Positions 1-46,481 of a DNA stretch of 64,000 bases are shown piece by piece. Numbering within the stretch: position 1 is the first letter of the stretch; each line of letters opens with the position of its first letter. The notes beneath the pieces were generated by a model that worked only from the letters and a program-made list of their open reading frames with translations, was not told where the DNA came from and searched no databases. The DNA is from Methylosinus sporium (lineage in GTDB: Bacteria > Pseudomonadota > Alphaproteobacteria > Rhizobiales > Beijerinckiaceae), in assembly GCF_044758975.1 (NCBI RefSeq), contig NZ_CP172862.1. One strand, 5' to 3'. Position numbers and translations under genes: made by a program.

Positions 1-88
1 CCGGCTTGGTTCCGGTCGGCTTCAGATAGAAAAGCTCGGCGATCGTCGCCGCGCTGTCGGCCGGAGCGCCGGAACGGCTCGTCTCCAT
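1..88 (-). CDS. Partial ORF: first ~29 codons (METSRSGAPADSAATIAELFYLKPTGTKP...) of a minus-strand gene that runs off the window start; hypothetical
   Basis: ATG at the plus-strand 'cat' near 86-88. Third codon positions are G/C-rich, consistent with coding. No domain is recognisable in 29 residues. Confidence 0.25.
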   Translation of the reverse strand, partial: METSRSGAPADSAATIAELFYLKPTGTKP

Positions 89-161
89 GCTCGTCGCCTT
101 CGGTGGGAAAAAAGCGCCTCGCGCGCCTCGCTGGATAAATCTACCAGTCTGGTCGAAATAT

Positions 162-1280
162 TCAACGGGGCGAGAGATCGGCGTCGACGGTGACGATGTT
201 GCGGCCGCGCGATTTGGAGACATAGAGCTTGGCGTCGGCGCGCTGGATCAGATTCTCGGCGTTCTCATTGGGCGCCAGCTGGGCGACGCCGAAGGAGGCG
301 GTGATGCGGCCGATCGGCGCGCCGCCCTTGATCGCCCATTTCTTGGTCTCGAATTCGGCGCGAATGCGCTCGGCCGCCATTTTCGCCTCGGCATAGGAGA
401 CGGCGGGCATGATGATCGCGAATTCCTCGCCGCCATAGCGCGCGACCGTGTCCTTCTCCTCGACATGCTTGGCCATCGTCCTGGCGAAATTCTTCAGCAC
501 CTCGTCGCCGATGAGATGGCCATGGCCGTCGTTGATCTTCTTGAAATTATCGATGTCGGCCATGATGAGGCTCAAGGCGCTCGCCGTCGAAGCCGCGAGC
601 TTCGCCTCGCGCGCCAGCGTTTCGTCGAAATGGCGGCGCGTGAACACTTGCGTCAGCGAGTCGCGGACATTGAGCTCCTGCGTCTCGGCCAGCTCGGCGC
701 GCAATTGCGTGATCTGCCGCTGCGAGTCCTCCAGCTGGCGCTGATGCTCCTCGGTCTCGCGCAGCATCTTCTGATTTTCGGCGATCAGCAGCACGATGGC
801 GGCGCGGATCTGATCCGGGCTCGTCGTCGCCGTGATCTCCTTGTGGCCTTTCGCGAGGGCGGCGGAATAGGTCTTGTTGCTGTCGAGATGCGAGCGCACC
901 AGAGTGAGAATCGTTCCGAGCTCGCCGTCGATCAGCCGCCGCGTCTTGGCGAAATCCTCCGGCGCTCCCGCCGCTGCGGCGCCGTCGCGTCCCGAGCGCG
1001 TGACGATCTCCACGACGCGCGGCGTTCCCATCACGACGCCGATGAAGGAGACTGAGATCAGCGCCAGATTGCGCGCCAAGGCGAGCGGCTCATGGGCGAT
1101 GCGCAAGCGCTCGCCGGAGGCGCCCACGATTGTCGTCTCCCAATTGTCGAGCGACCATGACCAGAACGAGGAAGGGTCCGGCGCCGAGAAAAAGCCGGCC
1201 CGGCACAGAGCGAACACGCCTGCCGCGGCGACGAGCGCGCAGCCCGCGACCAAAGCCCAGCTTCTCGAATCGAGTTTCAT
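162..1280 (-). CDS. Membrane-anchored GGDEF-domain diguanylate cyclase
   Basis: GGEEF active-site motif (RYGGEEFAIIMP) in the C-terminal half. N-terminal hydrophobic segment MKLDSRSWALVAGCALVAAAGVFAL. The ORF is open upstream to 1574; I chose M99 (1280, preceded by a GGGAGA Shine-Dalgarno) over M83 (1328). Confidence 0.8.
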   Translation of the reverse strand: MKLDSRSWALVAGCALVAAAGVFALCRAGFFSAPDPSSFWSWSLDNWETTIVGASGERLRIAHEPLALARNLALISVSFIGVVMGTPRVVEIVTRSGRDGAAAAGAPEDFAKTRRLIDGELGTILTLVRSHLDSNKTYSAALAKGHKEITATTSPDQIRAAIVLLIAENQKMLRETEEHQRQLEDSQRQITQLRAELAETQELNVRDSLTQVFTRRHFDETLAREAKLAASTASALSLIMADIDNFKKINDGHGHLIGDEVLKNFARTMAKHVEEKDTVARYGGEEFAIIMPAVSYAEAKMAAERIRAEFETKKWAIKGGAPIGRITASFGVAQLAPNENAENLIQRADAKLYVSKSRGRNIVTVDADLSPR

Positions 1281-1501
1281 CTTGGTCCGTCTCTCCCGTC
1301 TCGGCCGGCGAGAAATTTCTATCCGCATCGTCTCGCCGGCGGGAAAAACATGCTCGCCGACGGGACGCGAATCAGAAAATGCCCGGAAACTATTTTCCTC
1401 TCTCCTCGGCGCGCGTCCATAGCGACGTTCGCGCCGGCGCGCGAAGCCTTTCGAGCGGGAGAGGGCGTTTTTTTGAGGAAACGGCGGCAGGCTGGCCGGG
1501 C

Positions 1502-2164
1502 TCAGACGCCGCGGCCGCTCTCGTCCATCGCGACGCGGCGCGCGTCGGTGAGCGCCTTTATGGCGAGGCCGCAAATGGCGAAACCCGCCAAAATCAGGAT
1601 GGCGGCGTCGAGCCGGGAGACGCCGACGTCATTGGTCTCGTCTATTCCCATGGCGTGGGCGGCGAAGGGCCAGAGCGCCATCAGCAGTCGGAACTCGGTC
1701 GCGCCGAGGCCGATATAGGCCATTTGCTGAACGTGGCGGACGATCGCGCGGATATAAGTATAGGCCGAGAAGAGCAGATAGCAGATCAGCACGACGAAGG
1801 CCGATTCGATCGACAAGAAGGGCGAGAGGCCGAAGGCGACGATCAGCAATATTTGGGAGAAGAGATCGAATGTGTGCTCGACGAGGCCGAGCCGCGGATC
1901 GGCGCTCTTGCGATGCAGCGCCAGCCGCCCGTCCAGCGCCGCGCCGAACCAGTTGAGAAAGACGCCCAGCGGAATCAAAGGCATCCACAACGCCGACCAC
2001 CGGCAGCCGACGAGCGCGACGGCGGCAACGCAGGCGCCGAACAGTCCGATGCGCGTCAGCTGCAGAGGCGTCACCGATTCGGGTAGCTCGATCACGAGCG
2101 CGCGCAACAGCCGTTGCTCGGCCGGAGCCAGGAAGCTCTGATGATGGTGATCGGCGGTCTTCAT
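1502..2164 (-). CDS. CDP-alcohol phosphatidyltransferase family protein (paralog 1)
   Basis: Motif FLNWFGAALDGRLALHRKSADPRLGLVEHTFDLFSQ approximates D-G-x2-A-R...G...D...D of CDP-alcohol phosphotransferases. Multiple hydrophobic helices. Clear paralog of the 6487..7293 product (shared LNWFG-DG-LA block and the YTY(I/L)R..V..V....Y.G(L/M)GATEFR(L/I)L.A.W block). Confidence 0.7.
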   Translation of the reverse strand: MKTADHHHQSFLAPAEQRLLRALVIELPESVTPLQLTRIGLFGACVAAVALVGCRWSALWMPLIPLGVFLNWFGAALDGRLALHRKSADPRLGLVEHTFDLFSQILLIVAFGLSPFLSIESAFVVLICYLLFSAYTYIRAIVRHVQQMAYIGLGATEFRLLMALWPFAAHAMGIDETNDVGVSRLDAAILILAGFAICGLAIKALTDARRVAMDESGRGV

Positions 2165-2334
2165 GAGCGACGCACTCCGCGGTTGCCTCCGCTCGATCGT
2201 TTGCGCTTCGGACGATTTTTGTATTGTCGCATATCGTCGGCGGCGCGCAAGCCCGAGCGAGAGCCGCCGGCCTTAAGCCAAGCGTTAACCTTTCGAAAGG
2301 CATAGTGCTCGCGAAAATGGCGAGGACATGACCG

Positions 2335-3171
2335 ATGGCGAGAGCAGGCTCGGCGCGGGGCCGGAAACATTCGCCCCTATCCTATGACGAAGCGGCGGCG
2401 GCCGCGCGTTGCGCGGCGGCGCGGCGGCGCGTCATTTCCATGTCTTATAGCGCCAATTCGGCTCATCTCGGCTCCTCGCTCGGCGTCGTCGAGATTCTCG
2501 ACGCCGTGCTCGCCGTCTCCGATCTGCGTCCGGCGACCGCCGGCGCGACGGAGCGCGACCGCGTCATTCTCTCCAAGGGCCATGCGGCCATGGCCTATTA
2601 CGCCGCGCTCGAGCAATATGGCCTCGTCGCGCCCGGCCTTCTCGACGCCTATCTGCAGAATGGCACGCCGCTCTGGGGGCATGTCGGCCTCACCGAGGCG
2701 GTCCCCGCCATCGACGCCACCAGCGGCTCGCTCGGCCATGGCCTGTCGCTGGCGGCGGGCTTTTCGCTCGGGCATCGGCTGCGCGGAAGCGCCCATCGCG
2801 TCTTCTGCATTCTCTCCGACGGCGAATGCGACGAGGGCTCCACCTGGGAGGCGGCGCTCTTCGCCGGCGCGCGCAAGCTCGCCTCGCTGACCGCCATCGT
2901 CGATTACAATCACATTCAATCGCTTGCGCCCACGCGCGAGGTGATGGACCTCGAGCCCTTCGGCGCCAAATGGCGCAGTTTCGGATTCGAGACGATCGAG
3001 CTCGACGGCCATGATTGGGCGGCGCTGGTCGCGGCGCTGGAGCAGCCTTCGCGCGGACGCCCGCGCGTCATCCTCGCCCATACGGTGAAGGGCAAGGGCG
3101 TCGCCCGCATAGAGAACACGGTCGCCTCGCATTACAAGCCGGCGCTCGCCGCCGATCTGGAGCTCGCCTGA
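2335..3171 (+). CDS. Transketolase, N-terminal (thiamine-diphosphate-binding) subunit of a split transketolase
   Basis: ILSKGHAAMAYYAALEQYGL, GSLGHGLSLAAGF and CILSDGECDEGSTWEAALFAGARKLASLTAIVDYNHIQS are transketolase N-terminal signatures. An alternative ATG lies at 2440 (MSYSANSAHLG...). Confidence 0.85.
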   Translation: MARAGSARGRKHSPLSYDEAAAAARCAAARRRVISMSYSANSAHLGSSLGVVEILDAVLAVSDLRPATAGATERDRVILSKGHAAMAYYAALEQYGLVAPGLLDAYLQNGTPLWGHVGLTEAVPAIDATSGSLGHGLSLAAGFSLGHRLRGSAHRVFCILSDGECDEGSTWEAALFAGARKLASLTAIVDYNHIQSLAPTREVMDLEPFGAKWRSFGFETIELDGHDWAALVAALEQPSRGRPRVILAHTVKGKGVARIENTVASHYKPALAADLELA

Positions 3172-4112
3172 TGCGCAAGCGGATCATCGAGCTCATAGAG
3201 GCGGACGCCAGCGTCGATCCCAGAATCGTCTTTCTCACCGGCGATCTCGGCTTTTCTTTCGTCGAGCCGCTCGAGCAGGCGCTCGGCGAGCGTTTCGTCA
3301 ATATGGGCGTCGCCGAGGCCAATATGGTCTCGGTCGCCGCCTCGCTGGCCGCCGGCGGCTTTCGGCCCTTCGCCTATTCCATCGCGCCCTTCATGACGGC
3401 GCGCTGCCTCGAGCAGATTCGCAACGACATCTGCTATCAGCGCCGCGCCGTGCGGCTGATCGGCGTCGGCGCCGGCTTCTCCTACGGCACGCTCGGTCCG
3501 TCGCATCATGCGCTCGAGGACGCCACGATCATGGCGGCGCTGCCCGATCTCGTCGTCGCCAATCCGGGCAACGCCGCCGAGCTCGATCGCTGTTACGCGG
3601 CGCTGCTCGACGATCCGCGCCCCGCCTATTTCCGCATCGCTCGCGAGAGCGGCGCCTCTTATGGCGCGCCGATCTTCTCGCCGCAGACGGCGGCTTTCGC
3701 GGCGCGCCGCGGCGCCGATGTCACCCTGGCTGCGAGCGGCGGCTCGGTGACGCAATGTCTCGCGGCGGCGGAGATTTTGGCGGCGCAGGGGATCGAGGCC
3801 GCCGTCGTCAGCGTTCCGATCGTCCAGCCTTTTCCGGCGGAGGCTTTCGCCGCTCTGCTCACCGGCGCGCCGGTCGTCGCCGTCTTCGAGGGCTATCGCG
3901 GCAATCCGCTGTCGGTCGGCGTCATGGAGACGCTTCTCGCGCGCGGGATGGGCGAGGCCTTCGTCGATCTCACCGCGCCGCAGGCTTTCCCCAGCCTCGT
4001 CGGCGACACGGAGACGCTGCGCCGCCGCGCCGGGCTCGACCCCGCCGCCATCGCCGCTCGGGCGCGCGCGGTCGCCGGACGGGACGAGCGGCTTCTCAGC
4101 GGCCGGGCCTGA
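3171..4112 (+). CDS. Transketolase, C-terminal (pyrimidine-binding) subunit
   Basis: MRKRIIELIEADASVDPRIVFLTGDLGFSF...FVNMGVAEANMVSVAASLAAGGFRPFAYSIAPF is typical of the C-terminal section. Its ATG overlaps the upstream TGA (TGATG at 3169-3173), indicating translational coupling with the N-terminal subunit. Confidence 0.85.
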   Translation: MRKRIIELIEADASVDPRIVFLTGDLGFSFVEPLEQALGERFVNMGVAEANMVSVAASLAAGGFRPFAYSIAPFMTARCLEQIRNDICYQRRAVRLIGVGAGFSYGTLGPSHHALEDATIMAALPDLVVANPGNAAELDRCYAALLDDPRPAYFRIARESGASYGAPIFSPQTAAFAARRGADVTLAASGGSVTQCLAAAEILAAQGIEAAVVSVPIVQPFPAEAFAALLTGAPVVAVFEGYRGNPLSVGVMETLLARGMGEAFVDLTAPQAFPSLVGDTETLRRRAGLDPAAIAARARAVAGRDERLLSGRA

Positions 4113-4115
4113 CGC

Positions 4116-5039
4116 TTGCGCGTCTTTCTCACAGGCGGGACGGGCTTCCTCGGGGCGCAGGCGACCCGGCTCCTCGTCGAATCGGGACATGAATGCGCCG
4201 TTCTCCTGCGCGGAGAGATCGAAGCGACGCGGCTCGCGCCTCTCGTCTCCCGGCTTCATGCGATCCGCGGCGATCTCTTCGCGCCGGAGAGCTATCGCGA
4301 GGCCTTGACGAATTTCGCGCCCGACGCGCTTTTGCACAGCGGCTGGCGCGGCGTCGCCGGGGCGGAGCGCAATGATCTCGGCCAACTCGACAATATCGTC
4401 GCCACGGGACGATTGGCCGTGGCCGCCGCCGACGCCGGCGCCCGCATTCTGATCGGCGTCGGCTCGCAGGCCGAATATGGCCTCCTCTCCGGCCGCGTCG
4501 CCGAAGACGCCGCGGCCGAGCCGACCACACTCTATGGAGTGGCCAAGCTGGCCGCCGGCCGGGCCCTGCTCGCAATAGCGGCGGAGCGCGGGCTGCGCGC
4601 AGCCTGGGGGCGCGTTTTTTCTCTTTATGGTCCCGGCGAGGCGCGGCCCTGGCTCGTGCCGTCGCTCATTCGCGCCTTCGCGGCGGGCCGTTCGCCCGAT
4701 CTCACCGCTTGCGAGCAGATTTGGGAGTTCACCCATGTCTCCGACGCGGCCGCGGCGCTGCTCGCGCTGCTCGATCACGAGGCGAGCGGCGTCTTCAACA
4801 TAGGATCGGGCGAGCCGACGCCATTGCGCGACGCTGTTCTGCTCTTGCGCGATCTGACGGCGCCCGGGGTCGCTCCGAGATTCGGCCGCACGCCCTATCG
4901 CCCGGATCAGATCATGCATCTCGAAGCCGATATCGACCGGATAAGCGCCGCGACCGGCTGGCGACCCGGCGTGTCCCTGGCGTGCGGCTTCGCCGAAACG
5001 GTCGAATGGTTTCGCGCCGGCGGCGGTGAAAATTGTTAA
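4116..5039 (+). CDS. NAD-dependent epimerase/dehydratase (extended SDR)
   Basis: N-terminal Rossmann motif MRVFLTGGTGFLGAQATRLL and catalytic YGVAK (YxxxK). Starts 4 nt after the transketolase C-subunit stop, so likely the same operon. Confidence 0.8.
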   Translation: MRVFLTGGTGFLGAQATRLLVESGHECAVLLRGEIEATRLAPLVSRLHAIRGDLFAPESYREALTNFAPDALLHSGWRGVAGAERNDLGQLDNIVATGRLAVAAADAGARILIGVGSQAEYGLLSGRVAEDAAAEPTTLYGVAKLAAGRALLAIAAERGLRAAWGRVFSLYGPGEARPWLVPSLIRAFAAGRSPDLTACEQIWEFTHVSDAAAALLALLDHEASGVFNIGSGEPTPLRDAVLLLRDLTAPGVAPRFGRTPYRPDQIMHLEADIDRISAATGWRPGVSLACGFAETVEWFRAGGGENC

Positions 5040-5091
5040 CCTTACCCTGTAGCGAACGGGTCACAGCCGGGCGATAAAGGGTTGGCGTGGC

Positions 5092-6354
5092 GTGGAAGGC
5101 CTTGTCTTCGCCAAAGAGACAGGGTCATTTGGGCGCGCGGCGAAGCTCCGGGAGCGGCTCGGAGCATTGGTCGGGGGCGGCGTGGTTTTGAAGACGCTTC
5201 GTATTTTCGGGGTTTTTGCGGCTGCTTCGCTCTCGGGCTGCAGCTTGCTTCCGGGCAGCGGCCCTTCGGGCGATGCGGTGATGACCGCCGGCGTGCCGAG
5301 CGAATCGCAGCCGGAGACGGCCTTCGCCCTCGTCGAGATCGACGGCCAGGTGGTGGCGGCGTTGGCCAAGCATGGCGCGCCAGGCCTGCGCGGCTCCTTC
5401 GGCGATTATCGTCCGCCGGCCTCGCAGCCGATCGGGGTCGGCGACACGCTGCAGATCACTCTATGGGAGGCGGCCGCGGGCGGCCTGTTCTCCTCGCCGG
5501 CGACGGATCGAACCAGTCCGGGCTCGCGCTCGGCGGCGATTCCCGATCAGACGGTCGGGCGCGACGGCTCGGTGACGGTTCCCTACGCCGGGCGCATACA
5601 GGTCGCCGGCCGCACCCAGCAGGAGGTGGAGGCGGTCATCATCGAGCGGCTGCGCGGCAAGGCGATCGAGCCGCAGGCGCTGGTCAATGTGTCGCGCAAC
5701 ATCAGCAATACGGCGACGGTGACGGGCGAGGTGACGCAGGGCGCGCGCGTGCCGCTGACCTTGCGCGGCGATCGCGTGATGGACGTCATCGCCCAGGCGG
5801 GCGGCTTTCGTTCGCCGGTGCACGAGACCTTCGTCAGCCTGACGCGCGGCGACCGCACCGCGCGCGCGCCGATCCAGGCGCTGCTCGCCAATCCGCGCGA
5901 GAATATATTCGTGCGTCCGGGCGATGTGCTGACGGTGGAGCGGACGCCGCAGACTTTTACCGTCGCCGGCGCGACGGGGGCCAACGCCGTGGTGCCCTTC
6001 GACGCGCGGGGAATCACGCTGGAGGAGGCGATCGGCAAGGCCGGCGGCCTCGCGGACCAGCGCGCCGATCCGAGCGGGCTGTTCGTGCTGCGCTACGAGC
6101 AGACGGCGGTGATCGCGGATTATCCGACCGTGTCGCCGCTGCTGGCCTCGCAGCGTCAGGTTCCGGTGGCCTATCATCTCGACATGCGCAGTCCGGCGGC
6201 GCTGTTCACGGCGCGTCGGTTCGCGATGCGGGACAAGGACATATTATATGTGTCCAACGCGCCTGTGACGGAGATCGCCAAGGCGTTTCAGCTGGTCTCC
6301 ATGCTGACGCAGCCGGCGATTCAGGGCGCTGCGGTCGGCGCTGCGGTGAAGTGA
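5092..6354 (+). CDS. Polysaccharide export outer-membrane lipoprotein (Wza/GumB-like, Poly_export + SLBB domains)
   Basis: Lipobox AAASLSGC. PIGVGDTLQITLWE poly-export motif and repeated SLBB-like segments. The true start may be a GTG/TTG a few codons downstream of 5092. Confidence 0.75.
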   Translation: MEGLVFAKETGSFGRAAKLRERLGALVGGGVVLKTLRIFGVFAAASLSGCSLLPGSGPSGDAVMTAGVPSESQPETAFALVEIDGQVVAALAKHGAPGLRGSFGDYRPPASQPIGVGDTLQITLWEAAAGGLFSSPATDRTSPGSRSAAIPDQTVGRDGSVTVPYAGRIQVAGRTQQEVEAVIIERLRGKAIEPQALVNVSRNISNTATVTGEVTQGARVPLTLRGDRVMDVIAQAGGFRSPVHETFVSLTRGDRTARAPIQALLANPRENIFVRPGDVLTVERTPQTFTVAGATGANAVVPFDARGITLEEAIGKAGGLADQRADPSGLFVLRYEQTAVIADYPTVSPLLASQRQVPVAYHLDMRSPAALFTARRFAMRDKDILYVSNAPVTEIAKAFQLVSMLTQPAIQGAAVGAAVK

Positions 6355-6486
6355 CCTATCATGCGCGAAACCATTATCGGGACGTCTGAAATTCGTCCCG
6401 AGGCGTGATAGCGATTGACGCGACGGCAAGCCGCGGGCAAGCTGATGATGGATAATATTGCGGTGCAATAGAGCGCGTGGCCGCTG

Positions 6487-7293
6487 GTGAGGACGCCAGA
6501 CAAGGGCTGCGAGGGCGGGCTTGGTTTTCGAGGGGGTTTCTTGGCGAACCGATTGAACACGAGCCTTTTGGCGATCGGCGAGCGGCGCGTGCTGCAGGCG
6601 CTGGCGCCGCGGCTTCCCGCCTGGACCACGCCGGATCATCTGACGGCGGCCGGGCTGGTCGGCGCGGCGGTGACGGCGGCGGGCTTCGCGCTCAGCCATT
6701 GGTCGGCCGGCTTCCTCGCAGTGGTCGTGGCGGGCCTGTTCCTGAACTGGTTCGGCGATTCGCTCGACGGAACGCTGGCCCGCTATCGCGGGATCGAGCG
6801 CCCGCGCTACGGCTTCCTGCTCGATCATTCGAGCGATCTGATCGCGCAGAGCCTGATCGTCGTGGGCCTCGGCGTCTCGCCCTATTTCACGCTTCCCTCG
6901 GCGCTGTTCGTGCTGTCGCTCTATCTGCTGATGAGCTCCTACACCTATCTGCGCGTGGCGACGGCGGGCGTGCATCGCTTGTCCTATGGCGGCATGGGCG
7001 CGACGGAGTTCCGCATTCTGGTCGCGGCCTGGAGCCTGTTCGCCTGCTGGCTCGGCCCGCAGGTGGTGGAGGCGCGGCTGTGGCGCTTCGCCATTCTCGA
7101 CGTGACGATCGGAACGATGTCGGCCATCGCCTTTGCGCTCTTCGTGCTGATGGTGCGTCAGGATCTGTCGCGGATGGATCGCGACGACGACCAGGAATCG
7201 GCGACCATTCACCGCCTGCCGACGCGCCGCCACGCGGCCGAGCCGGCTGCGGCCGAGCCTGCGCGCGAGCTTCCCGGCGTCTCGGCCGGCTGA
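6487..7293 (+). CDS. CDP-alcohol phosphatidyltransferase family protein (paralog 2)
   Basis: FLNWFGDSLDGTLARYRGIERPRYGFLLDHSSDLIAQ matches the CDP-alcohol phosphotransferase motif. Multi-pass membrane protein. Paralog of 1502..2164. Confidence 0.7.
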   Translation: MRTPDKGCEGGLGFRGGFLANRLNTSLLAIGERRVLQALAPRLPAWTTPDHLTAAGLVGAAVTAAGFALSHWSAGFLAVVVAGLFLNWFGDSLDGTLARYRGIERPRYGFLLDHSSDLIAQSLIVVGLGVSPYFTLPSALFVLSLYLLMSSYTYLRVATAGVHRLSYGGMGATEFRILVAAWSLFACWLGPQVVEARLWRFAILDVTIGTMSAIAFALFVLMVRQDLSRMDRDDDQESATIHRLPTRRHAAEPAAAEPARELPGVSAG

Positions 7294-7445
7294 CGACGAC
7301 GAAACAGGACGGCAGGCCCGGTTTTGACGGCGCATCAGATTTTCCAGAGTGACGAACTCTGGCGGGGCGACGCCCTGCGGCGCGAGCGTGAGCTCGCGGC
7401 GGGACTTGCTTTCGCGGGTCTTGCTTTCATGAGCGCGCGCCCCAG

Positions 7446-8558
7446 ATGCGACGTGGGAGCGACGCCTCCGGCGCCGCCACAATGGAGCCTGTCGACGTTT
7501 TGGCCATGACGAGCGACATGCGCGATATCGCCCTCGTCACCGGCGCGAGCGGTTTCATCGGAGGAGCGGTCGCCGGCCTGCTGCACGAGCAGGGCTGTCG
7601 CGTGCGCGCTTTCGTCCGGCCGACCAGCCCGCGCGCCAATCTCCGCCCGCAATACGAGACTTTCGAAGGCGATGTGACCGATCGCGAGAGCCTGCGCGCC
7701 GCGCTCTCCGGCGTGCGCTACCTCTTCCATGTCGCCGCCGACTATCGCCTGTGGGCGCCCGATCCCGCCGTCGTCATGCGCACCAATCTCGAGGGAACGC
7801 GCATCGTCATGGAGGAGGCGCTGCGCGCCGGCGTCGAGCGAATCGTCCACACCAGCAGCGTCGCGACGCTCGCGCCCGACGCCTCCGGCCTTTGCGACGA
7901 GACGCGCCGGCTCGCGGCCTGCGACAGGCTCGGCGCCTATAAGCGCAGCAAGCTCCTCTCGGAGCGGCTGGTCGAGGATATGGTGGAGCGGCTGCAGCTG
8001 CCGGCCATCATCGTGAATCCCTCCGCGCCGCTCGGCCCCGGCGACGTCCGTCCGACGCCGACCGGCCGCATCGTCCTCGAGGCGATGCGCGGCAATATGC
8101 CGGCCTATGTCGACACCGGCCTCGCCGTGGTGCATGTGGCGGATGTCGCCGCCGGCCATCTCGCCGCTCTGCGCCAGGGACGAATTGGCGAGCGCTATAT
8201 TCTCGGCGGCGAGAATGTCGAGCTCTCCGAGCTGCTCGCCGAGGTGGCGAGCCTCGTCGGCGGCCGTCCGCCGCTCATGCGCCTGCCGCGCTGGCCGCTG
8301 CTGCCGCTGGCGCACGCCAATGAGGCGTTGGCGCGGCTCACCGGCCGTGAGCCTTTCCTCAATGTCGAGAGTCTGCGTCTCTCGGCGACGACCATGTTCT
8401 TCGACGATTCCAAGGCGCGCCGCGAGCTCGGCTACTGCTCGCGCCCCTATCGGCAGGCACTCGCCGACGCCGTGGAATGGTTCGGCGCCCGCGCCGCCGA
8501 GACGCGGCAGGCGCCGCGCGACGCACGCCGCGCGCCGGACGGAGCGCCGGGCGAATAG
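7446..8558 (+). CDS. NAD-dependent epimerase/dehydratase, HpnA-like sugar epimerase subfamily
   Basis: IALVTGASGFIGGAVAGLLHEQGCRVRAFVRPTSPRANL resembles the N-terminus of hopanoid-associated sugar epimerase HpnA-type SDRs. YxxxK present (YKRSK). The real start is probably an internal ATG (7482-7518). Confidence 0.7.
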   Translation: MRRGSDASGAATMEPVDVLAMTSDMRDIALVTGASGFIGGAVAGLLHEQGCRVRAFVRPTSPRANLRPQYETFEGDVTDRESLRAALSGVRYLFHVAADYRLWAPDPAVVMRTNLEGTRIVMEEALRAGVERIVHTSSVATLAPDASGLCDETRRLAACDRLGAYKRSKLLSERLVEDMVERLQLPAIIVNPSAPLGPGDVRPTPTGRIVLEAMRGNMPAYVDTGLAVVHVADVAAGHLAALRQGRIGERYILGGENVELSELLAEVASLVGGRPPLMRLPRWPLLPLAHANEALARLTGREPFLNVESLRLSATTMFFDDSKARRELGYCSRPYRQALADAVEWFGARAAETRQAPRDARRAPDGAPGE

Positions 8559-8635
8559 CGTCGGCGCCCTTGCGCGCGGCCGCGCGACGAGGCAATTCTC
8601 CGCGCGTGGCTGGGTTTTCTCATGACGAGCGTCGG

Positions 8636-8974
8636 ATGATCATCGATCGGCGTCCGCCCGCGCGCGGCGCGGGACGGCGCTTGCTCTTTCTCATGCGTCT
8701 CGCCGCATCGGCGGCGGCGCTCTCAATTCCCGAGACGGCTTTCGCGCAGGCGGCTCCCGGCTTCAATCTCTGCGTGCAGCCAGGCGCGCCCCCTTGCGTC
8801 TTCATGCCCGGCCGGGCGGCGGAGGCCTGCGGGGCCGAGGTCGAGGCCTATATCGCCTCCGTATTCCATTATCGCGAATGTCTCTCCAAGGAGAGCGAGC
8901 GCGTGATTCGCGAATCGAACGACGTCATCGACCATTGGCGATGCCGGGAGCGCGGCGAGCGGTGCCGCAAATGA
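8636..8974 (+). CDS. Small secreted Cys-rich protein (~112 aa), hypothetical
   Basis: Signal peptide MIIDRRPPARGAGRRLLFLMRLAASAAALSIPETAFAQ. Six Cys in the mature part. High GC3. Its stop overlaps the ATG of the downstream glycosyltransferase (ATGA at 8971-8974). Confidence 0.5.
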   Translation: MIIDRRPPARGAGRRLLFLMRLAASAAALSIPETAFAQAAPGFNLCVQPGAPPCVFMPGRAAEACGAEVEAYIASVFHYRECLSKESERVIRESNDVIDHWRCRERGERCRK

Positions 8975-10269
8975 AGCGGCCCGTGGTCTATGACGTCACG
9001 CGGCTCGTCACGCGCGCGCTCAATCCGACGCCCAATGGCATAGATCGGGTCGATTTCGCTCTGGCGCGGCATTTTCTCTCGGGCGAGGGCGGCGTCGCGT
9101 TGGCCGCGGCGGCGCTCGGGCCGCGGCTCGCCTCCGCCGAGGCGGGGCTGCGCACGCTCATCGACATAGAGACCTATTGGAACGAGCTTCGCGATTCCTC
9201 CACGGACGACGGCTTCTCCACGGACGAGATGTACGAGCGTGTGGTCGCCTCGCTCGGCGCGACGCCGCAGGGGCCGCGGGCGCCGCGGGTGGCGCGTCGC
9301 GATTGGGCGATCGTTCGAGAGAATTGGCGCGCCATGCGGCGCTGGGCTCTGCGTCTCGGGCGGCCGCCGTCGGAGGCGCCGGAGGGCGCCGTGTTCTTCA
9401 ATGCGAGCCAGTTTCCCGTGCATAAGGAATGGCATTTGCGCTGGCTCGACGCGCGGCCGGACGTGAAGCCCGTCTTCTTCGTCTATGATCTCCTGCCGCT
9501 GGACGCGCCCGAATTCTTCCGTCCGGCCGAGCGCGACAAGCATCGTCTGGTCATGGGCAATATCGTGCGGCGGGCGGCGGGGGTGGTCGTCGCATCGGCT
9601 TCGGTCGCGCGGCGGGTCGCGGACTATGCGAAAGAGAAGGGCAGGGGCGATCTGCCGGTCTGCGTCGCCGGCCTGCCGGCGGCGCCCGCCTTCGAGCGCG
9701 AGGCGGTCGCCGATCCGCGGCTCGCCGACACGCCTTATTTCGTCTTCTGCAGCACGATCGAGCCGCGCAAGAATCATATGCTTCTGCTCGACGTCTGGCG
9801 CGAGCTGGCCGAGCGCGCGGGCGCGGGCGCGCCCAAGCTCGTCCTCGTCGGCAAGCGCGGCTGGCACAATGAGAATGTGCTCCGCATGCTGGAGCGCTGC
9901 GCGGCCCTGCGCCCGCATGTGGTGGAGGCCTCCGGCCTGTCGACGCCGGCGATGCGGCGGCTGCTGGCCGGCGCGCGCGCCGCGCTCGCGCCCTCCTTCG
10001 CGGAAGGATTCGGGCTCCCCATCGCCGAGGCCGCGGCCTGCGGCGCCCCGATCATCGCCTCCGACATAGAGATATTTCGCGAGATCGCCGACGACACGCT
10101 CGACTATATCGATCCGCTCGACGGCCTCGGCTGGCGCGACGCGATCCTCGACTATAGCGCCCCCGATTCGCCGCGCCGCGCCGCGGCTTCGCGGCGGATC
10201 GCAGGGTTCCCGCGCCGCGACGCCGCTTCTTTTTTCGAGACGATCGACGAATTCCTCCGCGCTTTGTGA
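8971..10269 (+). CDS. Glycosyltransferase family 1 (GT4-like)
   Basis: C-terminal EPRKNHMLLLDVW...APSFAEGFGLPIAEAAACGAPIIASDIEIFREI is the GT1/GT4 donor-binding signature. The start MKRPVVYDVTRL is coupled to the upstream small ORF. Confidence 0.8.
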   Translation: MKRPVVYDVTRLVTRALNPTPNGIDRVDFALARHFLSGEGGVALAAAALGPRLASAEAGLRTLIDIETYWNELRDSSTDDGFSTDEMYERVVASLGATPQGPRAPRVARRDWAIVRENWRAMRRWALRLGRPPSEAPEGAVFFNASQFPVHKEWHLRWLDARPDVKPVFFVYDLLPLDAPEFFRPAERDKHRLVMGNIVRRAAGVVVASASVARRVADYAKEKGRGDLPVCVAGLPAAPAFEREAVADPRLADTPYFVFCSTIEPRKNHMLLLDVWRELAERAGAGAPKLVLVGKRGWHNENVLRMLERCAALRPHVVEASGLSTPAMRRLLAGARAALAPSFAEGFGLPIAEAAACGAPIIASDIEIFREIADDTLDYIDPLDGLGWRDAILDYSAPDSPRRAAASRRIAGFPRRDAASFFETIDEFLRAL

Positions 10270-10364
10270 ACGCGCCCGTTTCCGCGGCGCGGCGCGCCTT
10301 GCCGGAGCGGCGGCGGTTTCCTATTAAGGTCGAACAAAGGCCCACCAGCGAAAGAGAGGCGTCG

Positions 10365-11093
10365 ATGACGGACCCTTCGAGCCCGCCGAAATGGAAGCGG
10401 GTCGTCGTCAAGCTCTCGGGCGAGGCGCTGATGGGCGACGCCCCGCATGGTCTGCACGCGCCGACATTGGAGCGCATCGCCAAGGATCTCGCCGCTTCCG
10501 CCGCGCTCGGCGCGCAGATCGCGGTCGTCGTCGGCGGCGGCAATTTCTTTCGCGGCATTCAAGGCGCCGACAAGGGCATAGAGCGCGCTCGCGCCGATTC
10601 GATCGGCATGCTGGCGACGGTGATGAACGGGCTCGCGCTCGAGCAGGCGATCGAAGCGCAGGGCCGCCAGGCGCGCGCGCTCTCGGCCGTGCCCATGCCC
10701 TCGCTCTGCGAATCCTATTCGCGGCGGGCGGCGCTGCATCATCTCGACAAGGGCCGCGTCGTCATCGCCGCCGGCGGCACGGGCCTGCCTTTCTTCACCA
10801 CCGACACGCCCGCCGTGGTGCGCGCCGCCGAGCTTTCGGCCGACGCCGTGCTGAAGGCGACTCAGGTCGATGGCGTCTATACCGCCGATCCCAAGCGCGA
10901 CCCTTCGGCGCGGCGCTACGAGCAGCTGACTCATGACGAGGCCATCGCCAAAAGCCTCGCCGTGATGGACACCGCAGCCTTCGCTCTTGCCCGCGAGAAC
11001 AAGATTCCCATAATCGTCTTCTCCATCGCCGAGGCGGGCGCGATCCGCGCGGTGCTGGAAGGAAGAGGGCGGGCCACCCATGTCGTTCCTTAG
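10365..11093 (+). CDS. pyrH: UMP kinase
   Basis: KRVVVKLSGEAL, VVVGGGNFFRG and the conserved C-terminal block. Confidence 0.92.
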   Translation: MTDPSSPPKWKRVVVKLSGEALMGDAPHGLHAPTLERIAKDLAASAALGAQIAVVVGGGNFFRGIQGADKGIERARADSIGMLATVMNGLALEQAIEAQGRQARALSAVPMPSLCESYSRRAALHHLDKGRVVIAAGGTGLPFFTTDTPAVVRAAELSADAVLKATQVDGVYTADPKRDPSARRYEQLTHDEAIAKSLAVMDTAAFALARENKIPIIVFSIAEAGAIRAVLEGRGRATHVVP

Positions 11094-11224
11094 CGGACGA
11101 GCGCCTTCTGGATGCGGCGGCGATTTCCGCCTCGGCGGATTATGTTCTATGAAACGCTCCGACCCCTGAGCCGGCGCGGCCCGCTCGTTCGAACCGAAGA
11201 CATCACGAATAGGCAAAGTTTCCT

Positions 11225-11785
11225 ATGGCTCAGACTTTCGATCTGCCCGAACTGAAACGCCGCATGCAGGGCGCGCTGGCGACCCTCAAGCACGAGCTCG
11301 GCGGGCTTCGCACCGGACGCGCCTCGGCGAGCCTGCTGGAGCCGATCCATGTCGAGGCCTATGGCCAGGCGACCCCGCTCAATCAGGTGGCGACGATCAG
11401 CGTGCCGGAGTCGCGCATGCTGGCCGTGCAGGTGTGGGACAAGGGCCTCGTCGGCGCCGTCGACAAGGCGATTCGCGATTCCAATCTCGGGCTCTCGCCG
11501 ACCATCGAGGGTCAGGTGCTGCGCATTCGCACGCCGGAGCTCAACGAGCAGCGCCGCAAGGAGCTGGTGAAGGTCGCGCACAAATACGCCGAGGATGCGC
11601 GGGTCTCGGTGCGCCACGTTCGGCGCGACGGCATCGATATATTGAAGAAGCTGCTGAAGGATCACGCTCTTCCCGAGGACGACTCCAAGCGTCACGAGGC
11701 CGAGGTGCAGAAGGCGACCGACGAGTCGGTGCGCGAAATCGACACCATGCTCGCGCAAAAAGAAAAAGAGATCATGCAAGTTTGA
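11225..11785 (+). CDS. frr: Ribosome recycling factor
   Basis: Full-length similarity pattern: [24 protein letters not shown]...[11 protein letters not shown]. Confidence 0.92.
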
Positions 11786-11858
11786 TTTGTCTTTTCGATT
11801 TTCACGAGACGCCGGCCGGTCCGGCCCGAGCTCTCGAGTATGGCGCGGAACAAAAAAA

Positions 11859-12638
11859 ATGGGAGATGGTGGAATATTGGAGCTGGGAGCGCCGGCCTTG
11901 GCGCCGAGATCCGCGCCGCGTCATGTCGCTTTGATCATGGACGGCAACGGCCGCTGGGCGGCCGCGCGAGGCCTGCCGCGATTCGAGGGTCATAGGCGTG
12001 GCGTCGACGCTCTGCGCAAGACCGTGCGCGCGGCGATCGAGCTCGGGGTGGATTATCTGACGGTCTATTCCTTTTCTGTGGAAAATTGGTCGCGTCCGCC
12101 CGAGGAGGTGCAGAGCCTGCTCGCGCTGCTGCATCGGTTCATCCGTAACGACCTCGCCGAGCTGCGGGGCAATAATGTTCGCGTGAAGGTCATCGGCGCG
12201 CGCGCGGATCTTTCGGCCGAGATCGCCGGGCTGCTGCGCGAGGCCGAGCAGATGACCGCCGCCAACACTGGCCTCACCCTCGTCGTCGCCTTCAATTATG
12301 GCGCGCGGCAGGAGATCGCCGCCGCGGCGCGGGCGCTCGCGGAGGAGGTCGCCGCGGGCCGTCTGCGTCCGCAGGACATAGACGCCGAGGCGATCGCCCG
12401 ACGTCTCGACACGGCCGATATTCCCGATCCCGACCTCATCATCCGCACCAGCGGCGAGCAGCGCCTGTCCAATTTCATGCTGTGGCAGGCCGCCTATGCG
12501 GAATTGCTGTTCGTGCCGGTCCACTGGCCGGACTTCAGCCGGGCGGATTTCGAGGCGGCGATTGACGAATATGCGCAGCGCGATCGGCGTTTCGGCGGGC
12601 TGGCGCCGGTCGATCGCAGAGCGAAGACCGCTTCATGA
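11859..12638 (+). CDS. uppS: Di-trans,poly-cis-undecaprenyl-diphosphate synthase
   Basis: [13 protein letters not shown] and [11 protein letters not shown] motifs. The ORF is open from 11787 but M25 (11859) fits the conserved N-terminus. Confidence 0.9.
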
Positions 12639-13501
12639 GCGAATCTTCCGAGCCGCCCGCCGCCAAAGCCGGCGCGAGGGGCGGTCAATTCTCCGATCTT
12701 GGTCCCCGCATCGGCTCGGCGGCGGCGCTGATCGCGACCGCGGTGGTCGCGCTCTATGTCGGCGGCGACGCTTTCGCGCTGTTCTGGCTGCTCGCCGGCT
12801 TCGCCGTCTCCTGGGAGTGGCAGAGCATCGTCGGCGGCAAGATGGCGCTCGCGCGCTTCGCGCTCGGCGGCGCCTCTCTCGCGGGGGCGACGGCCTTCGC
12901 CGCCCATGGCGGCGGCCCGGCCGCGCTGGCCTCGCTCGTCTTCTTCTCGGCGATTCTCGCGATTCTCGCCGGACCCGGCCGTCGGCTGTGGGCGCCGGCC
13001 GGCCTGCTCTACGCCGGCTCCTTGATCGTCTCCACCAATGTGCTGCGCCATTCGTCCGATTATGGCGCGCTCTCCATCGCCTGGCTGTTCGCCGTGGTCT
13101 GGGGCACGGATGTGATGGCCTATTTCGGCGGCCGCCTGATCGGCGGGCCGAAGCTGTGGCCGCGCGTCTCGCCGGGCAAGACCTGGTCGGGAACGCTTGT
13201 CGGCGTCGCCAGCGGCGCGCTGGCGGGCGTCGGCGTCGTCTATCTCAGCCGCTGGAGCGCGGCGGCGACCCTGCCTTTGTTTTTCGTCGGCATTGTCGCG
13301 GCGGCGCTGGCGCAGGCGGGCGATCTTTTCGAATCCTGGATCAAGCGACGCTTCGGCGTGAAGGATTCGAGCCGGCTCATCCCCGGCCATGGCGGCGTGA
13401 TGGATCGCGTCGACGGCTTCATCTTCGCCAGCGCCTTCGCGGCCATGCTCGGCGGTTTGCGCGGTCAGGAGTCCCTGGCCGCCGGCATCTTCATCTGGTA
13501 G
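12635..13501 (+). CDS. cdsA: Phosphatidate cytidylyltransferase
   Basis: [30 protein letters not shown] signature. ATGA overlap with the uppS stop. Confidence 0.9.
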
Positions 13502-13511
13502 GCGGCGTCAC

Positions 13512-14756
13512 ATGGCGACAGGGACAGGATCGGATCAGCTCGGGACGGGGTCGCGCGGCCGGCCGCCGAAGCGAATCGCGCTGCTCGGCGCGACCGGATC
13601 GATCGGTCGCTCCACCGTCGATCTGCTGCTGCGCAACCCGGAAGCCTATTCCGTCGCGGCCATCGCGGGCGGGCGCGACCACGCCGCTCTGGCGCGGACG
13701 GCGCTGGCGGTGAAGGCCGAATTCGTCGCCATTCGCGACGAGGACGGCTATGCGGCGCTGAAGGAGGCGCTCTCCGGCACCAATATTCAGGTCGCCGCCG
13801 GACGTGAGGCGGTGATCGAGGCCGCGACGCGCGAGGCCGATCTCGTCGTATCGGCCATTGTCGGCGCCGCCGGAGTCGAGCCGACCCATGCGGCGCTGGA
13901 GCTCGGCCGCGTCGTCGCCCTCGCCAACAAGGAGTGTCTCGTCTGCGCCGGCGGGCCCTTCATGCGCACGGCGCAGCAGAAAAAGGCGCGGCTGCTGCCC
14001 ATCGACAGCGAGCACAACGCCATTTTCCAGGCGCTCGGCGGCGAGGACGTCTCGCGAATCGAGAAAATGACCATCACCGCGTCCGGCGGCCCGTTCCGCA
14101 CCTGGACCAGGGAGGCGATCGAGGCCGCGACGGTGGAGCAGGCGCTCAACCATCCCAATTGGGCGATGGGGCCGAAGAACACGATCGATTCGGCCAGCCT
14201 GATGAACAAGGGCCTCGAGCTGATCGAGGCGCATCATATTTTCGCCGTGCCGGCGGAAAAGCTCGACGTCGTCGTGCATCCGCAATCCATCGTGCATGGG
14301 CTCGTCAGCTTCACCGACGGCTCGGTCACGGCTGGGCTCGCCCGCCCGGACATGCGCGTGCCGATCGCCCATTGCCTGGCCTATCCCGAGCGAATCGAGA
14401 CGCCGGCGCCGCGGCTCGATCTCGTCGCCCTCGGCGCGCTGACTTTCGAGAAGCCCGATCTCGACCGTTTTCCGGCGCTCGGTCTCGCGCTCGACGCGCT
14501 GCGCGAGGGGGGCGCCTTGCCGACAGTGCTCAACGCCGCCAATGAGATCGCGGTCGAGGCCTTCCTGTCCGGCCGCATCGGTTTCAGCGGAATCGCCCGC
14601 GAGGTCGAGAAGGCGCTGGAGGCCGCGCTCAAGGACGGCACGGCGCGGGAGCCGGCCACCGTTGAGGACGCCCTCGATATTGACCATATTGTCAGAGAAA
14701 GATCGCGCGGCGCCTTGGCGATGAACCAGGCTTCGGGCATGTTAACGCTTCAGTAA
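13512..14756 (+). CDS. dxr: 1-deoxy-D-xylulose 5-phosphate reductoisomerase
   Basis: IALLGATGSIGRSTVDLL NADPH-binding N-terminus and conserved catalytic-domain blocks. Confidence 0.92.
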   Translation: MATGTGSDQLGTGSRGRPPKRIALLGATGSIGRSTVDLLLRNPEAYSVAAIAGGRDHAALARTALAVKAEFVAIRDEDGYAALKEALSGTNIQVAAGREAVIEAATREADLVVSAIVGAAGVEPTHAALELGRVVALANKECLVCAGGPFMRTAQQKKARLLPIDSEHNAIFQALGGEDVSRIEKMTITASGGPFRTWTREAIEAATVEQALNHPNWAMGPKNTIDSASLMNKGLELIEAHHIFAVPAEKLDVVVHPQSIVHGLVSFTDGSVTAGLARPDMRVPIAHCLAYPERIETPAPRLDLVALGALTFEKPDLDRFPALGLALDALREGGALPTVLNAANEIAVEAFLSGRIGFSGIAREVEKALEAALKDGTAREPATVEDALDIDHIVRERSRGALAMNQASGMLTLQ

Positions 14757-14774
14757 CCAAGAGAGCGAGGCCGC

Positions 14775-15974: not shown

Positions 15975-16326
15975 CAGGCTTCGTGTCTCGTTCTTTTCTT
16001 CCCACTGAAATTCGGGGCGAAAGGGGCGAGACCGGCGGTTATGACCGCTTTTCGCCATCATTCTGGGGAGGATCGCCTCATGGGACTCGCGGCCAGCGCC
16101 GCGGGTTCCCGACGTTAACGCGACGCTGACCATAAAAAGTGGCTTCGCGGCGATGGGCCGGGCAAAACGGGGAAACTCGCGGCGTTCGGCATTTGCAGTA
16201 AACGGTAAACCTTGTAGAAGGTGAACATCGGATCGGACGGCGTGCGGTAGCGTGCGTGCGTTGTCCCAGTTCGTGAGCCGCGCCGCTTTCGGCGGGCGAC
16301 GGCGCGACGAGGACTTAGGATTGACA
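15975..16326 (+). promoter_or_regulatory. Long (~350 nt) non-coding leader / promoter region upstream of bamA
   Basis: No convincing ORF and no tRNA-like structure. The longest intergenic region inside the otherwise compact rseP-bamA-lpxD block. Confidence 0.3.
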
Positions 16327-30703: not shown

Positions 30704-31001
30704 GAAAAAAAACTCCGCGCCGTAGCGAGGATGGATGCTCGCGAGCCAAAAAGCAAGGTGCGCCGCGCGGACGAGAAGACTCCGATAGTTAACTTTTTTA
30801 TGGATATATTTCAGCTGGTTGTGCTCAGATTCGTGCTCCTTCCAACCCCACCCCTCCTTGCAACTCCCCCGCCGCGTCCCCACGTCTCGCGCCGCATGAT
30901 CCGCGGCTGCGCCGAAGGCGCGGCGCCGCATGCTCCCGGCGGAATGCGCCTGGGAGAAAAGGCTTTGAACCGCGCATTCCGCTCAACCATGAGCAAATGA
31001 G

Positions 31002-37427: not shown

Positions 37428-37428
37428 C

Positions 37429-38475: not shown

Positions 38476-38683
38476 CGGATCACCTCATGAAAGTCGTGGC
38501 GCCCCGGTCGTCCTTCGGCGCCGCGAATAGCCGACGTTCGAAAGAGATGAAGGCGAGGGCCGCCGTTGCGCATCGTCCCGACTTGTGCGGTGCAATGGGC
38601 ATATCGACGCCGGAGGACGATGGCAAGCCCGCAATCGGGCTCGCCTTTTCATCCCGATCGTCGCTGGTCGGCCGGGGGAGGGA

Positions 38684-39592: not shown

Positions 39593-39685
39593 GACGCGGC
39601 ACCTGTTTTGACGCAACTCCCCCTTAGATGGAGCGTGATCGCAAGAGACAAGCCGTCCGGTCCTCGGTATCTCGCCGTCTGCGTC

Positions 39686-40096: not shown

Positions 40097-40153
40097 GCTC
40101 GCGAGGGTGGGGTCGATTCCGGGCCTCTGTCCAGAGCGGGAAAGCGCGGGCCG

Positions 40154-40528: not shown

Positions 40529-40696
40529 TAGATACTCGTTATAAATATAAGCAGAACAACAATAATCCTGCTCATGTTGATGTTCTGGATGAGGTCTTTG
40601 GCCGCAGGGCTCGCGCTTCGCGGCGAAGGCCAGGATTGGCTTTGGAGAGCGAGCCTGAAGGCTCGCGGTCCAGGAAGCGTTTCGGGCCTTGAGTCT

Positions 40697-42214: not shown

Positions 42215-42230
42215 GACGTCACTCCACTCA

Positions 42231-43459: not shown

Positions 43460-43467
43460 CTTTCTTC

Positions 43468-46479: not shown

Positions 46480-46481
46480 AG

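Follow-up and report, generated by a model that had tools for sequence, protein, structure and literature searches.

Gene content and organization of the locus

The locus described here occupies positions 1502-10269 of a 64,000-nucleotide stretch of Methylosinus sporium DNA (contig NZ_CP172862.1, assembly GCF_044758975.1), hereafter the window, which has a G+C content of ~68%. It comprises nine genes, among them a split transketolase (TK_N and TK_C), two members of the cytidine diphosphate (CDP)-alcohol phosphotransferase family (PT and its paralog PTpar) and two extended short-chain dehydrogenases/reductases (SDRs). Judged by gene order in related genomes, the block is a composite, made of a conserved core and a transketolase/SDR insert from one Methylosinus sublineage, and is not one ancestral unit. 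Its products may together build a phosphodiester-containing glycolipid or lipid-anchored glycan of the cell envelope. The genes and their two flanks were as follows, with thiamine diphosphate abbreviated as ThDP and outer-membrane polysaccharide export as OPX:

162-1280, minus strand: GGDEF diguanylate cyclase, left flank; Pfam GGDEF 1.4e-43, end coordinate taken from the 372-amino-acid homolog of Methylosinus sp. PW1
1502-2164, minus strand: PTpar, CDP-alcohol phosphotransferase paralog, 220 amino acids; archaetidylinositol-phosphate synthase model 8.5e-6, no Pfam match
2335-3171, plus strand: TK_N, N-terminal (ThDP-binding) subunit of the split transketolase, 278 amino acids; Transketolase_N PF00456 5.8e-28
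3171-4112, plus strand: TK_C, pyrimidine-binding and C subunit, 313 amino acids; Transket_pyr PF02779 5.6e-23, Transketolase_C PF02780 6.4e-13
4116-5039, plus strand: extended SDR, 307 amino acids; Epimerase PF01370 3.8e-34
~5176-6354, plus strand: Wza/OPX-type outer-membrane polysaccharide export lipoprotein, ~392 amino acids; Poly_export PF02563 7.1e-16, SLBB_2 1.7e-16, SLBB 1.3e-10, LSGC lipobox
6541-7293, plus strand: PT, CDP-alcohol phosphotransferase, predicted to be catalytic, 250 amino acids; CDP-OH_P_transf PF01066 24.0 bits (cutoff 22)
7446-8558, plus strand: HpnA-family extended SDR, 370 amino acids; TIGR03466 437.5 bits (cutoff 367.65)
8636-8974, plus strand: small secreted six-cysteine protein, 112 amino acids; no family match
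8971-10269, plus strand: GT4 glycosyltransferase, 432 amino acids; Glyco_trans_1_4 8.7e-18
10365-11093, plus strand: pyrH, right flank only, 242 amino acids; TIGR02075 290.7 bits (cutoff 243.9)

The nine genes had been proposed in an earlier, sequence-only reading of this DNA, and profile searches placed them at essentially the same coordinates and in the same families. The ratio of nonsynonymous to synonymous substitution rates (dN/dS) was 0.08-0.30 for each cluster gene having a counterpart in Methylosinus sp. PW1, whose DNA is ~93% identical to the window at the nucleotide level, which indicates that these are real genes under purifying selection (the 307-amino-acid SDR at 4116-5039 had no PW1 counterpart for this estimate). 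From this nucleotide identity and the 97% identity of PT to its PW1 homolog, the source is taken to be a Methylosinus-type methanotroph of a species other than PW1. The start of the Wza-type gene is uncertain, its open reading frame (ORF) opening at 5092, and PT most likely starts at TTG 6541, because this start gives the 250-amino-acid length of its homologs.

All genes from 2335 to 10269 were co-directional, with three gene pairs overlapping or nearly abutting. TK_N and TK_C shared one base in the sequence TGATG, and TK_C is thus predicted to be translationally coupled to TK_N, as had been suggested earlier, with the correction that TK_C starts at 3171 and not inside the upstream ORF. A four-base overlap between the small-protein gene and the GT4 gene likewise predicts coupled translation of the latter. 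No convincing terminator was found in a scan of the intergenic gaps between 2335 and 10269, which is weak evidence. A match to the Pfam GT4-conflict family was considered as a sign of a defence system, and this was rejected; none of the nine cluster proteins matched PADLOC models.

The GGDEF gene on the left was found in the same position in the Methylosinus genomes PW1, LW5 and AZUO01, and travels with the transketolase module. On the right, pyrH is followed by frr, uppS, cdsA, dxr, rseP, bamA, lpxD, fabZ, lpxA and lpxB in a conserved block. In Methylocystis heyeri the core cluster does not adjoin pyrH. The pyrH block is the right flank only and not part of the envelope system.

The split transketolase and its SDR

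TK_N was 95% identical to its counterpart in PW1. Among solved structures, both subunits best matched the Carboxydothermus split transketolase (6YAK, 2e-53, for TK_N; 6YAJ, 7.5e-34, for TK_C). Alignment to these structures showed that SDGE...DYN, SAH, KGH, WGH, GVAEAN and PSHH were kept, and that the ThDP motif, the catalytic histidines and the cofactor-activating glutamate were retained, placing the pair among the split-gene transketolases. The first glycine of the ThDP GDG motif was replaced by serine throughout this transketolase clade, which also carried substitutions of its own in substrate-side motifs (SAHLG for SGHPG, SDGE for GDGE, and GSLGHG for GSLGQG).

The nearest relatives outside Methylosinus had 59-73% identity in TK_N, and three independent contexts were examined: Hyphomicrobium sp. 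D-2, Bradyrhizobium sp. F1.4.3, and a metagenomic contig from two samples (L087/L088). In all three (L087, L006, and L089), the transketolase pair came directly after genes for glucose-1-phosphate cytidylyltransferase (rfbF; TIGR02623) and CDP-glucose 4,6-dehydratase (rfbG; TIGR02622), both above their NCBIfam equivalog cutoffs, and was followed by an SDR of ~303 amino acids. A GtrA-domain gene and a GT2 glycosyltransferase gene lay further downstream in two of the three (L087 and L006), the GT2 of L087 resembling PgfS/ArnC. The arrangement of rfbF, rfbG, split transketolase and SDR is a recurrent and apparently uncharacterised cassette of the Hyphomicrobiales. The same loci sometimes also held several methyltransferase genes and a gene for a large membrane protein of 524-567 amino acids that belonged to no family.

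Identity to the L087 proteins was 72% for TK_N, 64% for TK_C, and 67% for the SDR. Since the relatives follow rfbF and rfbG and the SDR is 67% identical to that of L087, the three genes of the window (hereafter the trio) are read as part of a cassette for CDP-hexose tailoring, to whose genes they are orthologous. They share the gene order and the subunit overlap of the Hyphomicrobiales cassette. Of its seven genes, however, only these three are present in the window, where the neighbours of the trio are phosphotransferase and Wza genes and not the cytidylyltransferase, 4,6-dehydratase, GtrA, and GT2 genes. The SDR at 4116-5039 is probably a reductase or epimerase acting after the transketolase step. 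Its slot was taken in the PW1, LW5, and AZUO01 genomes by an unrelated SDR of 368 amino acids (27-28% identical, with no nucleotide match), so that two unrelated SDRs follow the transketolase in different strains.

Named orthologs among the top 120 transketolase matches came from a few Methylosinus strains and scattered other taxa. The same database, when searched with PT, listed several Methylocystis species and Methylosinus sp. Sm6, none of which is named among these 120. This distribution argues against a housekeeping enzyme and, taken with the gene context, leads us to regard the transketolase as accessory and sugar-related, in line with the sequence-only reading. Split transketolases encoded after CDP-glucose 4,6-dehydratase may represent a recurrent, putative route to branched sugars. 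The split transketolases of the miharamycin and amipurimycin pathways offer a parallel by description, not by sequence: they too are split ThDP enzymes in a sugar-tailoring context, expected to transfer two carbons to a keto-sugar (PMC12247030), but they serve antibiotic pathways, whereas the window holds a primary envelope locus.

The CDP-alcohol phosphotransferases and their family

PT was 97% identical to the PT of PW1 and carried the family signature (DxxDGxxAR...GxxxDxxxD), all eight residues of which were invariant in 14 homologs. PTpar was 39% identical to PT and evolved under constraint (dN/dS 0.12). Its motif, GAALDGRLAL...G...VEHTFD, has lost the first aspartate and the arginine and has glutamate in place of the third aspartate, and every aligned PTpar ortholog was similarly degenerate. 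PTpar matched neither the signature D(x)2DG(x)2AR(x)7-12G(x)3D(x)3D nor the Pfam model at its gathering score. The second phosphotransferase that had been reported upstream on the other strand is thus a homolog of PT, but one without the key catalytic residues.

From these motifs, PT looks catalytically competent and PTpar does not; the latter is probably non-catalytic or functionally altered. Enzymes of the CDP-alcohol phosphotransferase family work as dimers, and because of this the simplest reading of PTpar would be a conserved non-catalytic partner.

PT belongs to a large, uncharacterised clade, with over 590 loci detected across species-representative genomes of Alphaproteobacteria, Bacteroidales, Chloroflexi, and Coriobacteriia, often next to lipid genes. 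Of 80 PT loci, 12 also had a Wza gene and 11 a gene of the GT4 family, mostly under alphaproteobacterial labels (one locus, L028, was binned as Bifidobacterium, probably wrongly). Adjacency of PT and GT4 was also seen in Asaia, Methylocella, Pseudoxanthobacter, and a Rhodospirillales metagenome-assembled genome (MAG), in several cases with Wza.

The neighbours of PT in a Methylocella MAG (L078, 4882-11979) encoded a methyltransferase, an Spt-like aminotransferase, a 378-amino-acid protein of no family, a GT2/GT21-type transferase, and a GT4, and in a Pseudoxanthobacter MAG (L068) a short-chain dehydrogenase gene and an Spt-like gene stood beside PT and GT4. Both are apparent sphingolipid-type loci. 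Homologs in Bacteroidales adjoined an Spt-like gene, a GNAT gene, and genes for DUF5686/CarboxypepD_reg proteins, while distant homologs in Chloroflexi and Coriobacteriia had a conserved neighbour of ~307 amino acids which by eye resembled HtrB/LpxL-type acyltransferases. Taken together, the contexts of the PT family point to membrane-lipid head groups.

The export lipoprotein, the HpnA-family SDR, the small protein and the GT4

By its Poly_export and SLBB domains and its lipobox, the Wza-type protein is a member of the OPX family. The SDR at 7446-8558 had been called HpnA-like, and its score above the HpnA family cutoff makes it a member of that family. Its best solved homolog was 3WJ7 (1.6e-101), annotated as a putative oxidoreductase, which we take to be Gox2253; literature under that name gave no function. 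To our knowledge, the function of HpnA-family SDRs has been unknown since 1998. The gene adjoined PT in six Methylocystaceae loci, where PT and Wza lay upstream of it and the small protein and GT4 often downstream. No hopanoid gene was present among the scanned genes of the 64-kb window, so that this SDR passes the HpnA cutoff yet stands outside any hopanoid gene cluster.

A 2025 survey of Alphaproteobacteria found hpnA only in genomes with hpnH and considered its function still not established (PMC12583986); the supplements of this survey held no locus information on hpnA in Methylosinus. The PT clade is a conserved genomic partner for HpnA-family SDRs that stand away from hopanoid clusters; we regard this as a lead on HpnA and not as a result.

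The small protein, previously described as cysteine-rich and secreted, indeed had a signal-peptide-like N-terminus and six cysteines conserved in an alignment of nine homologs, and it co-occurred with PT in seven loci.

The GT4 was 80% identical to that of PW1 at the amino-acid level (dS 0.41), compared with 93-97% for the neighbouring proteins. This divergence was confined to ~9050-9800, encoding the N-terminal domain, where nucleotide identity was 50-80% versus 90-97% around it, and the pattern suggests a mosaic gene with allelic replacement of this domain. Surface-glycan loci, such as those for O-antigen and capsule, typically show swapped cassettes and mosaic transferases. By this analogy, the SDR swap and the mosaicism of the GT4 are as would be expected for a variable surface structure.

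Composite architecture across Methylocystaceae

In PW1, the cluster genes of the window were held in two places ~330 kb apart on one contig:

Locus A: GGDEF (minus strand), PTpar (minus strand), TK_N, TK_C, 368-amino-acid SDR, Wza, PT, ferritin, pepN
Locus B: response regulator, Wza, PT, HpnA-family SDR, 112-amino-acid protein, GT4, pyrH

LW5 and the AZUO01 genome had a complete A-type locus, while the sav-2 contig started just upstream of the PT of locus A and showed its right-hand part only. Positions 1-4086 of the window matched PW1 locus A (93.4%) and positions 5033-15999 matched locus B (93.2%). The segment at 5033-7293, carrying Wza and PT, matched both loci, and the segment at 4087-5032, carrying the 307-amino-acid SDR, matched neither. 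The 2.3-kb Wza-PT unit is duplicated in PW1 (L001 8477-10753; L003 12979-15232), its copies lying ~330 kb apart in direct orientation. They were 94.8% identical overall, ~99% across wza, and ~68-70% in the wza-PT intergenic region, which looks like gene conversion confined to wza.

Methylocystis sp. JAN1 and a MAG (L011) had PTpar, Wza, PT, HpnA-family SDR, small protein, and GT4 on one strand with no transketolase, and subsets of this core occurred in seven other loci. The JAN1 order is likely the ancestral state. Compared with it, the window looks like a JAN1-type core that has gained three genes between PTpar and wza and in which PTpar is inverted, and the PW1-type genomes look as if the locus had later been split, with duplication of Wza-PT. 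The flanks of the JAN1 and L011 loci had nothing in common with either PW1 flank beyond PTpar and do not inform the order of events. The idea of a block serving a single pathway, put forward in the sequence-only reading, was thus not borne out, as the core is conserved without the transketolase in JAN1 and other Methylocystaceae.

Linkage of the transketolase to the phosphotransferase genes, which the same reading had also proposed, did hold in the five of five Methylosinus genomes that have it. PTpar on one side and Wza-PT on the other bounded the trio in the window as well as in PW1, LW5, and the AZUO01 genome; in sav-2, only the right-hand flank is visible. Where the locus is split, each half has a Wza-PT copy of its own, so that the linkage of the transketolase to PTpar, Wza, and PT is preserved. 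The earlier reading had named as grounds for giving it up that the transketolase be the organism's only one and that its neighbours be unlinked in related genomes, and the second half of this was found: the HpnA-family SDR, small-protein, and GT4 genes lie ~330 kb from the transketolase in PW1, LW5, sav-2, and the AZUO01 genome.

Proposed pathway

We infer that the locus directs synthesis of a phosphodiester-containing glycolipid or lipid-anchored glycan, varied among strains by a CDP-linked branched deoxysugar, and give this reading a probability of roughly 45%. In the core layer, PT, possibly with PTpar, would transfer a phospho-alcohol from a CDP-activated donor onto a membrane lipid or a lipid-linked primer and so form its phosphodiester head group. 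The GT4 would then glycosylate the head-group product, the HpnA-family SDR would tailor a sugar or polyol, and passage to the cell surface would fall to the Wza-type lipoprotein together with the small secreted protein. The second layer would be the trio, derived from a CDP-glucose/CDP-4-keto-6-deoxyglucose tailoring cassette and inserted between PTpar and wza. It would add a two-carbon branch to a CDP-linked keto-sugar and reduce it, yielding a strain-variable decoration or donor.

The enzyme families are all known; what is new is their combination and the product. As had been noted before, the pathway matches no characterised one. The locus shares parts with, yet does not qualify as, a housekeeping transketolase, a phosphatidylinositol-phosphate (PIP) or archaetidylinositol-phosphate synthase, a full CDP-glucose cassette, or a complete Wza export system. 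Its core is conserved in the type II methanotrophs Methylosinus and Methylocystis with no member characterised, and so it probably marks an envelope lipid or glycan that is still unknown, in bacteria of environmental importance.

Several points weigh against this reading. The ~330-kb separation in four genomes leaves room for the two layers to act on different products, and the different SDR of the PW1-type strains means that the chemistry is not conserved. The fused layout, with the left part of locus A, the repeat, and the right part of locus B, was seen only in the window and may be an assembly mis-join across the 2.3-kb Wza-PT repeat. A search for a switch between A-type and B-type sequence within the repeat had no power inside wza, where the PW1 copies are ~99% identical; the wza-PT intergenic region and PT of the window were B-type.

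Both the supply of CDP-sugar and the export route are also incomplete at the locus. Homologs of rfbF, rfbG, gtrA, and the GT2 gene were absent from the whole 64-kb window, as they were from the 20-kb transketolase locus of PW1. No polysaccharide co-polymerase (PCP/Wzc) or KpsE partner, flippase, polymerase, or ABC transporter gene was present within 1502-10269, and the only Wzz-domain protein of the window (44224-46479) belongs to a separate exopolysaccharide locus with its own OPX gene. For the chemistry itself, a 2025 review states that transfer of a hydroxyacetyl group to keto-sugars by split-gene transketolases has only been proposed and never demonstrated (PMC12247030). Beyond that statement, the literature on transketolases in a CDP-glucose or O-antigen context yielded no characterised case, and that on transketolase in Methylosinus trichosporium nothing usable.

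Finally, the subfamily of PT is ambiguous. Its best NCBIfam matches were archaetidylinositol-phosphate synthase (51.7 bits, cutoff 180) and PIP synthase (30.2 bits, cutoff 170), far under the equivalog cutoffs and thus outside either group. The predicted structure (pLDDT 71.7) had as nearest folds PIP synthases (top matches 5D92, 6H59, and 6WMV), AF2299, and DIPPS, with E-values of ~1e-2 and TM-scores near 0.5. A PT family profile run against the sequences of solved structures gave instead CHPT1/CEPT1 at 1.6e-9, in an alignment covering the clade motif LSYGG[ML]GATE, and mycobacterial PgsA1 at only 1e-3. Fold comparison and sequence profile disagree on the subfamily, and consequently the CDP-activated partner may be a lipid or a soluble head group.

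Alternative explanations

The adjacency of the two layers could be incidental. The trio would then work with distant rfbF and rfbG genes and a polyprenyl-phosphate glycosyltransferase to modify O-antigen or another glycan, with no link to the core. This would suit the relatives outside Methylosinus, whose self-contained CDP-glucose cassettes lacked a phosphotransferase in three of three contexts and had GtrA and GT2 in two of three, as well as the core without transketolase in most Methylocystaceae and the ~330-kb distance of the HpnA-family SDR, small-protein, and GT4 genes from the trio. It accords less well with the visible flanks in all five trio genomes, which are PTpar and a copy of Wza-PT even after split and duplication, or with the absence of rfbF, rfbG, gtrA, and GT2 genes from the window and the PW1 locus. 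On balance we hold an incidental adjacency to be somewhat unlikely.

A phosphatidylinositol-type glycolipid is a decidedly less probable product. In this case PT would act like a PIP synthase on CDP-diacylglycerol and a polyol phosphate, and the GT4 would act on the head group in the manner of PimA or MshA. Besides the NCBIfam and fold matches of PT, this is favoured by the GT4, whose sole significant glycosyltransferase matches among solved structures were inositol-3-phosphate glycosyltransferase and PimB', and by cdsA, which lies 2.4 kb downstream. PT does share with the clade of PIP synthase, archaetidylinositol-phosphate synthase, and DIPPS the full signature, a length of ~250 amino acids, and a predicted all-helical membrane fold. 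The low scores and marginal fold statistics given above tell against such an assignment, however, as does the better alignment of LSYGG[ML]GATE with CHPT1/CEPT1 than with this clade. Neither an inositol-phosphate synthase nor a PIP phosphatase was found among the scanned genes of the window, and the adjacency of cdsA is not kept in Methylocystis. The mycobacterial operon for phosphatidylinositol and its mannosides (pgsA1, acyltransferase, pimA) likewise places a CDP-alcohol phosphotransferase beside a GT4. The locus described here, in contrast, lacks the acyltransferase, and the mycobacterial synthesis makes no use of Wza, an HpnA-family SDR, a small cysteine-rich protein, or a degenerate paralog, all of which the locus has.

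Given comparably long odds is a phospho-sugar lipid made by PT as a Kennedy-type enzyme whose donor would be a CDP-linked sugar in place of CDP-diacylglycerol, this sugar being the two-carbon-branched 6-deoxyhexose made by the transketolase. PT would move the sugar-1-phosphate to a membrane lipid alcohol, leaving the GT4 to extend the resulting phosphodiester-linked lipid and the Wza-type channel to display it. If true, PT would be the first member of the CDP-alcohol phosphotransferase family shown to use a CDP-hexose, and the sugar the first transketolase-branched one in a primary envelope component, with a biochemical context for HpnA-family SDRs.

Decoration of a sphingolipid or a hopanoid by the core seems very unlikely. 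For the former, PT homologs adjoin Spt-like aminotransferases in Methylocella, Pseudoxanthobacter, Bacteroidales, and others, Methylocella having a GT21-type transferase as well. Caulobacter CC_1159 (CpgA), which has a CDP-alcohol transferase domain, is needed for ceramide diphosphoglycerate (PMC11324152), and a phosphotransferase is part of an 'alternative' inositol-lipid cluster in Bacteroides vulgatus (PMC9246714); both were assigned genetically or genomically, not biochemically. Like the distant PT homologs, these two enzymes of the CDP-alcohol transferase family stand beside sphingolipid or inositol genes, a likeness of description. The Methylocystaceae, by contrast, appear to lack an Spt-like gene. 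No homologs of the Spt-like, GNAT-like, or short-chain SDR proteins of those loci were present in the window, and the top 120 homologs of the Methylocella Spt-like protein named no Methylosinus or Methylocystis, those at least 61% identical coming from Methylocella, Methylocapsa, and Methylobacterium. A ceramide acceptor is unlikely here on both counts, and a sphingolipid was accordingly rejected as the preferred product. For a hopanoid speak the score of the SDR above the HpnA cutoff and the restriction of hpnA to hpnH genomes (PMC12583986). The scanned genes of the 64-kb window held no hopanoid gene, which tells against it. We also know of no phospho-hopanoid.

That the split transketolase is the ordinary enzyme of the pentose-phosphate pathway, present here by chance, is highly improbable: the solved structure nearest to it comes from a functional split transketolase and its catalytic residues are intact, but its orthologs are confined to a few Methylosinus strains, with the Methylocystis species of the PT search and Sm6 absent among the top 120 matches, its relatives are embedded in CDP-glucose cassettes, and its clade has substrate-side substitutions of its own.

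Other features of the window

A separate, complete-looking Wzy-type exopolysaccharide locus was found at 36549-48817. It encodes WcbI, a GSCFA-family protein, a Bac_transf initiating transferase, a GT4, a 188-amino-acid OPX protein, a 751-amino-acid Wzz-domain protein, a GNAT protein, and a polysaccharide deacetylase. A GSCFA-family gene also stood beside GT4, Wza, and PT in one of the PT loci (L017). At 52423-55620, the gene for a 536-amino-acid GT4 adjoined, on the opposite strand, that for the periplasmic glucan biosynthesis protein MdoG (4.1e-175).

Two long ORFs had no Pfam match. The first (55945-60270, minus strand; 1441 amino acids) had a third-position G+C content of 0.67 compared with ~0.8-0.85 in its neighbours, and may have been acquired horizontally. 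The second (28985-30931, minus strand; 648 amino acids), with a third-position G+C content of 0.70, lay between gltX and the gene for an SPFH/Band 7 protein. A protein of 474 amino acids encoded at 22755-24179 (minus strand) carried C-terminal PAN domains, which are uncommon in bacteria.

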